Assembly: GCA_964016885.1 (NCBI GenBank)
Contig: OZ024750.1
Coordinates: 48,670,001 to 48,734,000, forward strand
Direction of reading: 5' to 3'
Length of the DNA: 64,000 nt
From: Eledone cirrhosa
Lineage: Eukaryota
Under the pieces are notes generated by a model. The model did no database searches. It was not told where the DNA came from and saw nothing but the letters and a program-made list of their open reading frames with translations. Shown here piece by piece: positions 1,983-62,049 of this stretch (its first letter is position 1; every line of letters starts with the position of its first letter). The position numbers and the translations under genes are program-made.

Positions 1983-2018
1983 CCCTGATGAAGGGACCTT
2001 TATGTCGCGAAATATTGG
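1983..2018 (+). ncRNA. Minimal hammerhead ribozyme-like motif (weak stems)
   Basis: CC-CTGATGA-AGGGAC CTTTAT GTCGC-GAAA-TA-TT-GG. AATATT palindrome at stem III; stem I only 2 bp. Confidence 0.5.
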
Positions 2019-2730
2019 ACAGCTAAAAGAACAACAACAAAGGTTACCAGGTGACTTTTATTTTTCGTTACCTCATCTTACAGTTTCGTTATCTCTTTTT
2101 ACAGTCCATTTTGCATTGTTTAACCTCCTACCTCTTTCAACGTTATATATCATCTTTTGAACAATGTTTATGGAATATTTCCCTAGCGTATTTATGTTTT
2201 ACTAGCAGAGGTAACCGGCGTTGTTCGGGTATTAAATAGCAGTTATGTATACCATTTATGTCAATACTTCAGTGCTGCTTCGAAAACTATACTTTTACAA
2301 AATCATCGTAGAACGAACGTAATTCTGAGAGTTCACTTTCATCTATAGAATAAACGTAGACCATGTGTCAAGTTTTATGAAAATCGGTTGCCAACTCCAA
2401 TAGTTATGATGTTGTGTTGTATTGCACTGCTGTGCTTCAGTCGACTCCAAGGAAGTGGTTAAAGGGGGTTATCTGCCGGGAGGCTCTATAATCAATATCT
2501 GGAAAAATGAAAGTTCCCATGACGATCCGCAGTACATAAGTAACCTATATCTGAAGTTTGGAGAATATACTTTAGAAACGCATAGGGTTTAAACACACAC
2601 GCTCTAGCGCGCGCGCGTGTGTGTGTGTGTGTGCGTGTGCGTGCGTGTGTATATGTATGTGTATGTCAGTCGGCGCATACATATGTACTGGACTAAATCT
2701 TCACTTTTTACTTTTACTATGTTAAGGCAA

Positions 2731-2841
2731 AGTTAAAATCCCGTCGAAGTTAACTCTGCCTTTCATCATTACGGGGTTGATAAAATGATGTACCAGTAAT
2801 ATACTGTATAATTGCTGGCCTTGTGCCAAAAGTAGAAACAA
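2731..2841 (+). mobile_element. SINE family A, 3' part
   Basis: GCCTTTCATCATTACGGGGTTGATAAAATGATGTACCAG...GCCAAAAGTAGAAACAA. Confidence 0.75.
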
Positions 2842-2931
2842 CTATTTTAATAACTTCTGCCATTTTCGTTTACAATTTTATTTACATCATTCTTAAACTC
2901 CGGGGCTGGAAATCATTCGGTTATTTTAAAT

Positions 2932-3111
2932 ATAATTGTTTCTATTTTAGGCACAAGGCCAGCAAATACCCAGTGCATTACTGGTACTTTATTTTATCGA
3001 CCACGTAAGGATGAAAGGCAAAGTCAGCCTCGGCTGGATTTGAACTCAGATCGTAAAGGGACGTAACTATGCTTGAAAGCATAGCGTCCGACCCTCTACT
3101 GATACTGCCAA
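2932..3111 (-). mobile_element. SINE family A, near full length
   Basis: Reverse complement has A-box-like TGGCAGTATCAGTAGA, B box GAGTTCAAATCC, core and tail. Confidence 0.85.
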
Positions 3112-3769
3112 TTAAATATAATATTAGTCTAACGACTCCATTTACACTATAGACTCTGTCTTGTCTTTGCATGAAGTTGTTCTTCCTCGGTCCACATAAC
3201 GACGTCTTATCCTCGTTTAATAGATTTAACTCTTAGTGGAATGCTGCACGAACACATACACGCGCACGTACACACACACGCACGCATGTTAATTAGTTAT
3301 AGCTTTTCTTCCCCTCTTACATAGCGTTTGTCGCTTTCTCTCTCTCTCTCTCACTCCCGCTATCCCCCTCTTTTAGTCTGTCTGTTTCTTTCACTCTCAC
3401 TCTTTCTTTTTTGTTTTCATATATATAGAGATTTTTTCTGTGCAAAGTCCTACCTATAGTCAGTTTTATCGATTTCTTTACCTGGTTAAAGAGGGAGTCG
3501 ATAAGACCAATGTCGTGCCGACCTGCCCGGATAAATTTGCGGTTGATTACAAAAAAAACGTTGAAAATTGGCCTTGCGGATCAAAAGTTACAGCGAAACA
3601 GACACACACACACATATACACACACACACACACACACACACACACATAGACAGACAGACATTTTCAATTTTATAGATATAGATTTCTCACGGTGACATTG
3701 GAGAATATTAATATGTTTTGTGAGGAAATTTCAGTGGTCAAGTTTCATGATAACATTATTTATTTACTG

Positions 3770-4200
3770 TGGGATTTAAGAATCGGTAGAGAGTTGGACA
3801 CCATACTTCATGGCATTATTACGTCCCTTTACACCATACTTCATGACATTATTACGTCCCTTTAATGGCGGTGGATTGGCAGTAACGGTAGAGGGTCGGA
3901 CGCCATGCTTTCCAGCATAATTACGTCCCTTTATGATCTGAGTTCAAATCCTGCCGAGGTTAACTTTGCCTTTCATCCTTACGGGGTCGATAAAATAAAG
4001 TACCAGTAATGCACTGGGTAATTGCTGGCCTTGTGCCTAAAGTAGAAACAATTATTACGTCCCTTTACGTTCTGTGTTAGCTTTGCATTTCATCGTTAGA
4101 GGGTCGATAAATAAAGCACTTGTAATGCGATGGAGTCGATTCAATCGACTTTCCCTATACCCTAAAGCTGATGGCCTTGAACCTAAAGTAGAAACAATTA
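3770..4200 (+). mobile_element. Cluster of SINE family A copies (full copy about 3866-4055)
   Basis: GGCGGTGGATTGGCAGTAACGGTAGAG (A box), GAGTTCAAATCC (B box), core CCTTTCATCCTTACGGGGTCGATAAAATAAAGTACCAG; partial duplicates on both sides. Confidence 0.85.
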
Positions 4201-58945: not shown

Positions 58946-59217
58946 TATATTATATATATATATATATATATATATATATATATATATATATATATATATA
59001 TATATATATATATATATATATATATATATATATATATATATATATATATATGTATATATATATAAATATATATATACATACACACATATATATACATATG
59101 AGTTGTATCAAACATTAAAAGTAATGTGCGGTTCGTTTGTAAACAAACAGCCCGCTTTGAAGCTGTACTCTGCCAGTGACTGATCGTTACCTATTTGTTC
59201 AACACTGGCTTTGAGGA

Positions 59218-59260
59218 ACTATCAACAAGTTTCTGGGTTATTATCCTTCATCAGGACTGT
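59218..59260 (-). ncRNA. Hammerhead-like motif with upstream octamer (59296-59303)
   Basis: Minus strand: ACAGTC-CTGATGA-AGGATAATAACCCA-GAAA-CTTG-TT|GATAGT. Confidence 0.6.
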
Positions 59261-61090
59261 ATACCTCTGCCAGGTAACATCGGGTGAGTAGCCTCATTTG
59301 CATACCGAGCGAATTATAGCACGCCTAGCCGATTAATATATAAACTGAAAAGTAAGCTCTTTTTCAAAATGATATGGAAGCTTAAGTTGAACAAGACTCC
59401 ATAATCTTTTGGTTTGGTCCAACATTTGGGATGTACCCCCAGACAGAGGCGGCTCAGGCATTTGAAGCTACTGTCTGAGTAAGACTGTCAAGATATTCAG
59501 AGGGGGGACGTAAATAACCAATAGTTGGGCTGATTTCTTTGGTGCTTGTCTACACCTAAATACGAGAACATTCCTCAAAGTATATATTTAGATCCCTGCC
59601 TCCTGAGGGTCCAGCTGGATCACCCCCACATCCATCTTTTATCACTATTAATCTCTAAATGCATCCCAGATCCACCCTAAGCTCGTTGTAAGATTGATGC
59701 TTTGCTTCTCTATATGGATTCTCTCGGCCATACCAAATATTTATTAGGGAACCAGCCACGTATCATGGATACTTAACGTGAGATTCACGACGGTGTTAGA
59801 ACCACCCTCTGAGCTGGTTAGATCCCCACTTTCCAGGAAAATGACTCACACCTCAGGACCACGCTGGAATCATTGACTGGCTAATATAATCAGGTGAAGT
59901 ATTTCACGTGTAACATATTCGTGAATATTAATACTTGTATTAGCTCTAAGCGAAACAGTTTATCTTTAGATAATCATACTAAAAATTCCCCCATTTCTTC
60001 CATACATATGCAAATCTGATACGGTTTTTAGTATATTTTATATCTGTATATGATTATCAATCTTGTGATACATGTTAGGCGTTGGTATAGTCTAATATTG
60101 GTGCCATTCGCACTTCCCACCATTTTGTTCTTGTTTGTTTTGTTTTGTTATCTGTCTTTTTTTTATAATTCTGTACTGTTTACATTAAGATTGTGATGTA
60201 TTCCATGTTTACTTAATGACAATCTATCTCCTTAGATTTTTCTTTAATTTACTTTATTCTTCGTTATTCTATTTCATCATTTATATAAGTCAACTAATTG
60301 TCAAATAATGTGTAATGTATTAAATATTGGCGAGACTGGTTATTATATTATATTATCACTACTGCTACTACTTCTACGATCCCTGGGCGGAGTGCCACTC
60401 TCATCCACATAAGTTATCGTTGATGCAGCCTTGACTGTTATTTTGGTTGTTATAAACAAGTACATGACCCAGCAACGGAATGCCAAGGTTAATTACTACT
60501 GATAAATCATCACTGAATAATTTAGTTGCCGACTCATTGAACGAAATCTCAGACCATGGCACCACAAAGAATTCGCAATAACTTGATGATTTAAGTGTGA
60601 AACTACTACTGACCCATAGATACTGGCCTTCTATATGACTTGTGGTGATGCTAGGAAGCTATTCTAAGTCATATGTCAGCGTTGCTTCGAGAAAGTTTCA
60701 GCACGAGACTTGAATCGAAAAAAGCAGTAGAATTTGTTATTTCTTTTTCATGTTTTTTTTCTCTTCAACATTTATCTGTCTGATTAAGTTATAACTGTTG
60801 CATAACGTAGGTACTATATATAACAGGTATTATGGCGGCATGAAGTAAATTCTAACGTGTCTATTTGCGCGTCATAATTATAACTATTCTCCGGAGTATA
60901 CACACCTACTTTTATACATCGTTGGGTGTTATATACTGCATACAATAGTGTCGGTGACAAACAAACATACTTTGCTACACACACACACACACACACACAC
61001 ACACATATATATATATATATATATATATATATATAAACGGCATAAATGAAACGAAATTCATTTCTCTCTCTTAGTATGGCTGTTTCTTAA

Positions 61091-61650
61091 ATATAAGTAT
61101 GTATACGTACATACATATATGTATACAGACGTAAAGTAGTATGTATATATATACATACATGCACACCTATATATATGTACATATGGATTTAGCAAATATT
61201 TATTATAATGCTCGGTGTGTTTGTAAACAAACATCCCGAATTAAGCCGTACAGTGTCTAGCAACCATCGCTGCTCTTTTGTTCAACACTAACAATGGAAC
61301 GATGTACTAGTTTCAAGCTTATTAGCTATCGTCAGCACCGTATATGCATAAGGAAAGTATATACTTTCAGACGTTCAATCATCTTGCAGGAAGGTATACG
61401 GTGCTGACGATAGCTAATAAGCTTGAAACTAGTACGGCATTCCTTTGTTCGGGATGTTTGTTTACAAACACACCGAGCATTATAATAAATGTTCGGTAAA
61501 TCCATACGTATATATATATATATATATGTGTGCATGTATGTATATATATATATACATACTACTGTATGTCTGTATACATACTACTGTATGTCTGTATACA
61601 TACTACTGTCTGTCTGTATACATATATGTATGTACGTATACATACTTATA
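61091..61650. mobile_element. Fold-back element with divergent CUAG-loop HHRs (61299-61341 minus, 61398-61434 plus)
   Basis: ACGGTG-CTGACGA-TAGCT AATA AGCTT-GAAA-CTAG-TA|CATCGT; homologous to 50780-51170. Confidence 0.85.
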
Positions 61651-61907
61651 TATAGATTTATATAGTACAATGAGGATATAGTTTAACGCCTGATAGTTAG
61701 TATATATATATATATATGTAGATAAATCTACCAAAAGTTTACGGTAGTGTCCAATCCGTATGAAAAACTCAATGTAATCCGGATATCATGAAAAGAGAAG
61801 ATGCATTCAAAAACTACTTTCGGTGAAAAATAAACGGAAAACAGAGTCAAGATAAATTAATAAAATAATGAATAAACAAAGAAACAGTTCCTTATATTAA
61901 AAAAAAT

Positions 61908-62049
61908 TCATCATTTTACGATCGTTTCTAGGATATATATGTGTTAGAGTTGGTATGCATATTCTATAGATCTATGTACAATATGTATACAAACTATCAG
62001 AGGGAATATACATACCTACACATATATATGCTGTCTTCAGAAATAATGA
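61908..62049 (-). ncRNA. Hammerhead ribozyme with long stem II (second copy)
   Basis: Minus strand: TCATTATTT-CTGAAGA-CAGCATATATATG..CATATATATCCTA-GAAA-CGATCG-TA|AAATGATGA. Confidence 0.82.

Follow-up and report, generated by a model that had tools for sequence, protein, structure and literature searches.

Type I hammerhead motifs with palindromic stem/loop III on Penelope-like elements and retrozymes in the Eledone cirrhosa genome

Hammerhead motifs in the window and in the genome

This analysis concerns a 64,000-nt stretch of the Eledone cirrhosa genome (NCBI GenBank assembly GCA_964016885.1, 3.0 Gb; contig OZ024750.1, positions 48,670,001–48,734,000 of the forward strand), referred to as the window, which has a GC content of 31%, is rich in (TA)n and (CA)n and contains numerous hammerhead ribozyme motifs, remnants of Penelope-like elements (PLEs) and tandem retrozyme units (Table 1). 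An earlier note on this DNA had proposed more than 25 hammerheads from about ten families and had read their palindromic loop III as a family-specific pairing code. A strict descriptor (CUGANGA, stem II of at least 3 bp, GAAA, 0–10 nt, UH, stem I of at least 4 bp), which presets the end pair A15.1/U16.1, leaves the interior of stem/loop III free and is blind to palindromes, recovered 15 intact hammerheads of type I from the window. Among 100 global and 100 block-wise dinucleotide shuffles of the window the means were 0.02 and 0.06 matches, respectively, with a maximum of 1, and the reversed and the complemented window gave no match each; the similar rate in shuffled sequence that would have spoken against the proposal was not seen. 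The CUGANGA heptamer itself occurs 54 times in the window and about 16 times in shuffles. The segment from A15.1 to U16.1 is a Watson–Crick palindrome in 12 of the 15 strict matches and in 14 once G-U pairs are allowed.

A looser descriptor allowing one mismatch yielded 22 matches in the window and 4 in the reversed window, and given this high background it was used solely for listing decayed copies. The resulting list of 39 candidates, chosen by eye and not blind, includes 33 with intact core letters and falls into about 12 families and two partial families; 23 candidates carry Watson–Crick palindromes, 9 carry G-U palindromes and 7 carry neither (six of odd length with a single central mismatch and one mutated). 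A 2,135-bp duplication (99.8% identical), which may be very recent or an assembly artefact, has seven of the 39 in its second copy. The claim of more than 25 motifs from about ten families is thereby right if decayed copies are counted and too high for strictly intact ones. Regarding individual sites, those cited at 7136, 8729, 17929, 24451, 32413, 46020, 50821 and 61299 are strict matches, and those at 54166 and 61908 are real with a stem II of 105–115 nt. At 47641 a hammerhead is present with one stem II base broken, near 58.9k its core is the variant CCGAAGG, as is usual in its own family, and at 28526 the 3′ half is present while the core about 60 nt upstream is decayed. The weakest cited sites, 1983 and 32949, are decayed with a 2-bp start of stem I, and the hexamers AAUAUU and AACGUU reported for them include the conserved A14, the usable palindromes being AUAU and ACGU.

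An origin by chance in AT-rich DNA full of microsatellites, where (TA)n would provide the palindromes, would be suggested by the fact that UAUAUA is a (TA)n word, that 1 of the 29 families proved to be a false match to a microsatellite and that the looser descriptor also finds matches in the reversed window. For the strict set this explanation is refuted by the comparison with the shuffles and by the genome sample described below, by the GC-rich palindromes CGCG, UGCGCA, CUAG and CGAUCG, and by family patterns with zero control matches, and its probability is close to nil. Judged by their sequence, the window motifs are real type I hammerhead motifs for which self-cleavage after N17 is predicted. 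A check with Infernal and Rfam, as the earlier note had suggested, failed to recover them: a scan of the window gave no hammerhead family at the gathering score, and at E≤5 none was present among the 150 of 290 matches shown, which were microsatellite-driven microRNA matches. The variants depart from the Rfam models in stems II and III. As the window copies are missed by Rfam, genomes like this one are under-annotated for hammerheads.

The genome-wide load was estimated from a sample of 79 10-kb stretches taken at round coordinates (789,600 bp in total), in which 80 strict motifs were found compared to 1 in the reversed control. This extrapolates to 3.0 × 10^5 strict motifs per 3.0-Gb genome (bootstrap 1.7–4.8 × 10^5); two arrays supply 28 of the 80, and without both stretches the density is about 68 per Mb, or 2 × 10^5. 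With 234 strict motifs per Mb the window is about twice as dense as the genome average of 101 per Mb, so the rate of one motif per 2–3 kb given earlier applies locally, while the genome holds about one strict motif per 10 kb. Across the whole genome the pattern CUGANGA-N11-40-GAAA has 587,924 matches and its reversed form 187,927, a control which slightly overstates the excess because word frequencies differ. Decoy heptamers served as a second background: GAAA follows 164 of 435 CUGANGA cores in the sample and a fraction of 0.17–0.26 of six decoys and 0.40 of the seventh, and at a background of 0.20 about 59% of the CUGANGA-N11-40-GAAA matches are real, or 3.4 × 10^5. A tighter pattern, in which several families are not represented, has 169,345 matches genome-wide versus 10,713 in the control, which sets a floor of about 1.6 × 10^5. 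The very large ribozyme load suspected from the window is supported by these numbers.

Per-genome counts in print, as given in the parts of the literature considered here, are 126,247 for axolotl, more than 6,000 for a coral, about 5,000 for a mussel and about 9,000 for Xenopus (PMC4209133). The load of about 3 × 10^5 is estimated to exceed the largest of these, that of axolotl, whose genome is about ten times as large; the search covered printed main text. Within the same scope, nothing was found on octopus or cephalopod hammerheads except 235 Rfam matches in giant squid, and the main text of the Octopus vulgaris repeat paper mentions neither hammerheads nor ribozymes.

Penelope-like elements and retrozymes as carriers

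A first group of carriers consists of PLEs whose C-terminal endonuclease is of the GIY-YIG type (EN+ PLEs). Of 10,596 candidates in the genome at least 150 match GIY-YIG, and a hammerhead follows on the same strand downstream of 6 of 19 long GIY-YIG open reading frames (ORFs). At five of eight loci it lies 220–580 nt past the endonuclease end, including the window locus, where the remnant at 17483–17705 is followed by a motif at 17933. Both Pfam domains RVT_1 and GIY-YIG are present in ORFs of three loci (L024, L031 and L021), so that for some families a reverse transcriptase (RT) with a C-terminal endonuclease lies upstream of the hammerhead, in agreement with the earlier assignment of the motifs to the PLE type. 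The window motifs show the insertion features of EN+ PLEs, namely 5′ truncation, an inverted partner and a (TA)n target: an antisense copy lies within 2 kb upstream of 20 of the 39 candidates and a TA run within 400 nt downstream of 37.

The largest hammerhead group has a stem I of UUUURU and 68,606 exact pattern matches in the genome (control 0), and 96 of 100 listed matches carry the loops UAUAUA, UAUGUA or UGCGCA on this one stem I. ORF pieces of one PLE type lie between the arms in 9 of 10 wide inverted pairs chosen from the matches listed for this group. An 821-aa ORF of this type (L176) contains the motifs RWT, DKT, YRDD, CxCx5C, CxxC and CxH and has 18 homologs at 29–38%, and the window stubs at 8.7, 10.1, 13.7, 24.4 and 32.4 kb match the 3′ ends of these elements at 79–99%. 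Since RWK, DKT, CxCx5C, CxxC and CxH mark the Hydra clade (PMC8557442, section 11), the group is by motif content a Hydra-clade PLE in which RWK appears as RWT. Similar to the Hydra clade of C-terminal EN+ PLEs as described in the sections of Craig et al. (2021, PMC8557442) compared here, these elements have an RWK-like motif, DKT, CxCx5C, and CxxC and CxH around the endonuclease E and N residues, insert at (TA)n and carry a hammerhead and an inverted 5′-truncated partner. In contrast to that clade, with few families outside cnidarians in the sections compared, at least 68,606 motifs and a 3′ untranslated region of about 1 kb are found here. Relatives of the partial motif at 28459–28540 adjoin Hydra-like endonuclease fragments, and in two of eight retrieved a CUGACGA core lies about 60 nt upstream.

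Further Hydra-type coding remnants were observed in the window at 62884–63294 (+) and 11458–11821 (+), followed by decayed CUGAUGA cores at 63375 and 63488. Abundant PLE families with a CxxxxCxxC linker have no canonical core within 900 nt in their 3′ region (L021–L023, L026–L029, L032, L033, L035, L039 and L040). A five-copy repeat with an inverted head of about 110 bp and a tail of about 90 bp in (TA)n has the geometry of a PLE stub, and no CUGANGA core was seen in it.

A second group of carriers are retrozymes. The CGCG motif has 1,146 exact genome copies at 311-bp spacing, and its non-coding tandem unit with one type I hammerhead each falls within the 150–450 bp of non-LTR retrozymes (LTR, long terminal repeat). 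All nine CGCG arrays inspected (that of the window and the first eight listed) consist of two back-to-back arms, and in the eight with both ends readable the arms end at unit positions 139–140 and 166–173, both in (TA)n, with a variable inner junction. They are unit-length multimers of up to 18+23 units at 99–100% identity. The CUAG family has 25,048 genome matches, of which 94 of 100 listed carry CUAG, many of them in tandem; the spacing is about 422 bp in one array (L079), and certain arrays have longer units. That two families are tandem retrozymes, in which the partner is the next unit of the same transcript, was missed in the first reading, which had recorded their motifs. PLE insertions are published to leave, as far as the source considered goes, an inverted copy and a 30–40-bp tail, and the ends of the two-armed CGCG arrays match this geometry, so that retrozymes are likely mobilised by PLE enzymes.

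A link between retrozymes and PLEs was described before (Cervera and de la Pena, 2020, PMC7229834; Li, Clavereau and Pollet, 2026, 10.64898/2026.07.22.740005). Like the animal non-LTR retrozymes in the parts of these papers compared, those described here are tandem non-coding units that measure a few hundred bp and hold a single type I hammerhead, and mobilisation by PLEs through circles is proposed for both, here from DNA; like axolotl HHR_Amex1 they have a 1-bp stem and a palindromic tetraloop. Unlike the non-LTR retrozymes described there, they form two back-to-back arms with fixed outer ends 26–33 nt apart in (TA)n, a PLE-like footprint.

None of the sequencing runs listed is recorded as RNA, which is neutral as to expression. 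Four sequencing runs were compared with the window for presence only, and depths are not to be read as copy numbers. The 311-bp retrozyme was observed in three runs carrying other organism labels, in each as one 340-nt contig (310-nt unit + 30). These contigs are closed loops in the assembly graph, in which tandem DNA and circular RNA look the same, the kind of run being unrecorded, and all have a 1-nt deletion that extends stem I to 6 bp, as in one genome locus (L116).

Palindromic stem/loop III, dimers and the proposed pairing code

In the strict window set the monomer would form only 1–2 bp of stem III, too short for a stable helix, and the sequence is palindromic through the loop, as expected for hammerheads of the dimer type. 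In all 14 cases tested the predicted double-hammerhead fold is more stable than two monomer folds by 11.6–19.9 kcal/mol (energies from a nearest-neighbour model without Mg or tertiary contacts), in line with the earlier view that such motifs cleave as dimers, cleavage itself being a prediction. Among 23 families with even-length stem/loop III the central 4 nt, which cannot pair in the monomer, are palindromic in 17 (about 6% expected) and in 21 with G-U pairs, and similar-looking families carry CAAUUG and CGCGCG; the observation that the sequence changes while palindromy is kept thus holds. Nominal P values for this are too small because the families share ancestry.

For repeat-type hammerheads with palindromic stem/loop III reviews cite Forster 1988 and Lunse 2017. 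Earlier papers already describe a palindromic loop III, cleavage as dimers and genomes with many families (Perreault et al., 2011; Cervera and de la Pena, 2014, 2020), so that the window adds examples to a known class. Palindromic stem/loop III is tabulated in Fig. S8 of Perreault et al. (2011, PMC3088659), and as in that figure the sequences found here are varied and nearly all able to pair in a dimer; its legend and section 8 claim no family-specific loop code. The dimer model was stated in a 2019 review citing Lunse 2017. The sections of Cervera and de la Pena (2014, PMC4209133) considered here report a palindromic helix III, inverted pairs and the presence of many families in a genome, and like those metazoan hammerheads the present ones are type I folds at PLE 3′ ends with a short palindromic helix III, proposed dimer cleavage and many dissimilar families per genome, occurring mostly as lone or inverted copies 100–700 bp apart. 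They differ from the motifs described in these sections in that most families have palindromes of 6–10 nt rather than none, that the first pair of stem II is often A-U or a U-U mismatch and not G-C, that N17 is mostly A (65 of 80 sample motifs), and that about 3 × 10^5 motifs contrast with the 2,000–9,000 reported there. Of value here are the scale of the load, as the new point, and the two-armed insertion footprint, and not the loop code.

We consider it about 80% probable that these are type I hammerheads at PLE 3′ ends and in retrozyme units whose palindromic stem/loop III lets two copies fold together and cut multimers. Two copies would pair via stem/loop III into a double hammerhead, and multimeric transcripts would be cut to unit length. 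The partner in a parent RNA that is active is probably the adjacent copy on the same transcript (the next pseudo-LTR, pLTR, or repeat unit), in which case any palindrome works and loops may drift between families via paired or G-U steps. The cut unit would be ligated to a circular template, on which the PLE enzyme would prime at fixed points about 40–170 nt behind the cut site and copy back through the ribozyme. Reverse transcription would mostly stop early, often leaving an inverted second arm, and by stopping after the ribozyme it would let whole-ribozyme stubs accumulate by the hundred thousand. Motifs, palindromes, carriers, insertion geometry and counts are observed here, and the dimer fold, the cleavage, the circular template and the mobilisation of retrozymes by PLEs are steps that we infer. 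The window motifs with their own upstream antisense copy (20 of 39) would fold shut into long hairpins. Among the 80 sample motifs such a copy is present upstream of 16, a tandem neighbour accompanies 27, and the other 37 have neither. The majority of copies in the genome are probably inert or spent.

Several observations weigh against this reading. No canonical core lies within 900 nt of 13 of the 19 long GIY-YIG ORFs, and three of the eight endonuclease ends have no hammerhead within 1 kb. The Hydra-type ORF matches no Pfam family directly, the similarity of its RT to other PLEs reaches only E 1e-5 to 1e-6, and an ORF was traced for the families named and for few other window families. The families AGAACU and ACCGUAGU are not palindromic, and some families have 3–4-bp stems and might function as monomers. 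Published minimal hammerheads cleave weakly even as dimers (PMC4209133), and eight of nine Xenopus retrozyme dimers did not cleave in the published part considered.

In an alternative, the motifs no longer need to cleave and ride at the 3′ end of the PLE RNA, which is copied uncut from linear transcripts; the palindrome would then be inherited only, or act in a different way, in RT binding or in dimerising the RNA so that priming occurs at two ends. It would fit the extension of copies 40–170 nt beyond the cleavage site, which implies that the template was uncut or religated, the several abundant PLE families without a canonical core, the success of Naiads elements, which thrive without a hammerhead, and the one family whose listed copies mostly have a C at position 4 of the core. 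We judge it unlikely, since core, stems and palindrome are retained jointly across very different families and the exact unit-length multimers of the CGCG arrays are most simply derived from circles.

The family-specific code proposed in the earlier note would mean that families diversified their palindromes under selection so that RNAs cleave only their own kind. More than 20 different stem/loop III sequences exist among the 29 families, most unrelated family pairs are predicted not to cross-pair, and between the UGCGCA and UAUAUA/UAUGUA Hydra families, which share stem I, the loop alone costs the heterodimer a predicted 6.2–12.5 kcal/mol; in this one case the loop would restrict dimers as had been suggested. 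However, the 15 families whose palindromes are perfect include 2 compatible pairs out of 105, versus 1.07 for random palindromes (P(null≤obs)=0.92), and among 28 families (the 29 minus the microsatellite false match) 34 of 378 loop pairs are compatible versus 3.1 at random, 18 of the 34 from one weak family. UAUAUA is common to families with different stems I and II, CUAG is common to two families, and three Hydra subfamilies with two loops cross-pair at a predicted −0.5 to −1.0 kcal/mol. Moreover, stem I is also intermolecular in the double hammerhead and is lost in all unrelated pairs tested: among seven window representatives such pairs cost a predicted 11–25 kcal/mol, and stem I by itself would separate most families. 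In tandem arrays the partner is set by proximity. With loops shared between families, Hydra subfamilies cross-pairing freely and a loop set no more exclusive than random palindromes, discrimination between families is likely a physical by-product without a sign of selection, and a selected code is quite improbable.

A bolder version is equally doubtful in our view: this genome would bear the heaviest self-cleaving-ribozyme load counted, drawn from dozens of PLE and retrozyme families, and at such a density cross-family dimers would matter, in trans or inside host pre-mRNAs. Loop III and stem I together would act as a self/non-self key against foreign copies, as between the UGCGCA and UAUAUA Hydra families, and the two-armed arrays would be traces left by a PLE enzyme moving round and round an RNA circle. 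A search of printed reports found none on hammerhead heterodimers. Whether hammerheads of PLEs cut in vivo, and whether retrozyme circles are copied by PLE enzymes, can be tested in this genome, which holds loop swaps made by nature on a shared stem I as well as retrozyme arrays that are two-armed and very young.

Feature catalogue and side observations

Table 1. Hammerhead motifs, carriers and repeats in the window (positions of the window).
Feature	Positions	Strand	Remarks
311-bp retrozyme insertion	6199..7339		two back-to-back arms in (TA)n, three hammerheads
Intact hammerhead, A-CGCG-U	6333..6375	-	retrozyme unit
Intact hammerhead, A-CGCG-U	6644..6686	-	311 nt from 6333..6375 copy, possible cis dimer partner
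Intact hammerhead, A-CGCG-U	7134..7176	+	inverted arm of retrozyme
Hydra-clade PLE remnant	8600..10202		inverted 3′ ends flanking RT fragment (9439-9585)
Intact hammerhead, A-UAUGUA-U	8730..8790	-	G-U palindrome, Hydra PLE 3′ end
Core-mutated hammerhead	10102..10162	+	inverted partner of 8730-8790
Intact hammerhead, A-UAUGUA-U	13658..13718	-	Hydra PLE 3′ end
PLE GIY-YIG endonuclease remnant	17483..17705	+	55-57% to L031 ORF
Intact hammerhead, A-UGUACA-U	17927..17988	+	~230 nt downstream of endonuclease remnant, same strand
Decayed hammerhead, A-UAUGUA-U	18403..18465	+	member of inverted pair
Five-copy PLE-stub-like repeat	19198-19402, 22764-22942, 32633-32692, 33337-33529, 35915-36105		masked self-BLAST
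Intact hammerhead, A-UAUAUA-U	24452..24513	+	Hydra PLE stub
Decayed hammerhead, ACAAUGU	25414..25464	+	odd length
Decayed core (CCGUCGA) and 3′ half A-CGCGCG-U	28459..28540	+	
Core-mutated hammerhead, A-CUGUACAG-U	31325..31406	-	absent from the earlier list
Intact hammerhead, A-UGCGCA-U	32415..32481	-	Hydra PLE stub
Decayed minimal hammerhead, A-CG-U	32948..32988	+	weaker relative at 1979-2022
Intact hammerhead, ACACUGU	38258..38307	+	odd length, GUC site; sole non-palindromic strict match
Decayed hammerhead, ACAUUAGUGU family	38776..38821	+	
Core-mutated copy, A-UGCGCA-U	39351..39417	+	
Intact hammerhead, A-UAUAUA-U	42537..42598	-	
Intact hammerhead, A-UAUAUA-U	42840..42901	-	different subfamily, 303 nt from 42537..42598, same strand
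Tandem duplication, period 2,135 bp	45905..50233		99.8% identical, doubling seven motifs
Intact hammerhead, A-UGCGCA-U	46021..46087	+	copy at 48156-48222
Inverted pair, decayed hammerheads, ACCACUGGU	46350..46533		odd length
Inverted pair, decayed hammerheads, A-UAUAUA-U	47125..47316		
Inverted pair, A-UAUGUA-U	47642..47881		folding as single long hairpin
Intact hammerhead, A-CUAG-U	50822..50864	+	~420-540-bp retrozyme family
Hammerhead, A-CGAUCG-U	54169..54314	-	115-nt stem II
Variant-core hammerhead, A-CAAUUG-U	58811..58901	+	C at position 4, long stem II
Decayed copy, ACUUGU	59218..59260	-	relative of CUAG family
Inverted pair of CUAG hammerheads	61299..61440		minus-strand copy intact
Hammerhead, A-CGAUCG-U	61911..62046	-	105-nt stem II
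SINE-like repeat	391-535, 2731-3112, 3871-4128, 13241-13368, 20048-20624, 34322-34454, 36292-36494, 56250-56377, 56874-56953		masked self-BLAST

The variant-core family represented at 58811–58901 has 1,342 genome pattern matches (control 0), and in the majority of those listed core position 4 is C rather than U; as CpG decay would remove this C, it is likely the parent state. Some copies have an extra base in the turn, stem II is about 60 nt long, and further copies were seen in the window near 58270 and 23130 (−) and at six genome loci (L195–L200).

Among other features, a 358-aa ORF at 43961–45037 (−) was set aside as lying outside the hammerhead finding, as it has no Pfam match and no PLE protein match; it contains FADD and is presumably similar to the C-terminal part of the reverse transcriptase of a long interspersed nuclear element (LINE). 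Interspersed repeats were mapped by masked self-BLAST, an unmasked repeat search being swamped by microsatellites, and include a short repeat resembling a short interspersed nuclear element (SINE) with a dozen often truncated copies in the window.

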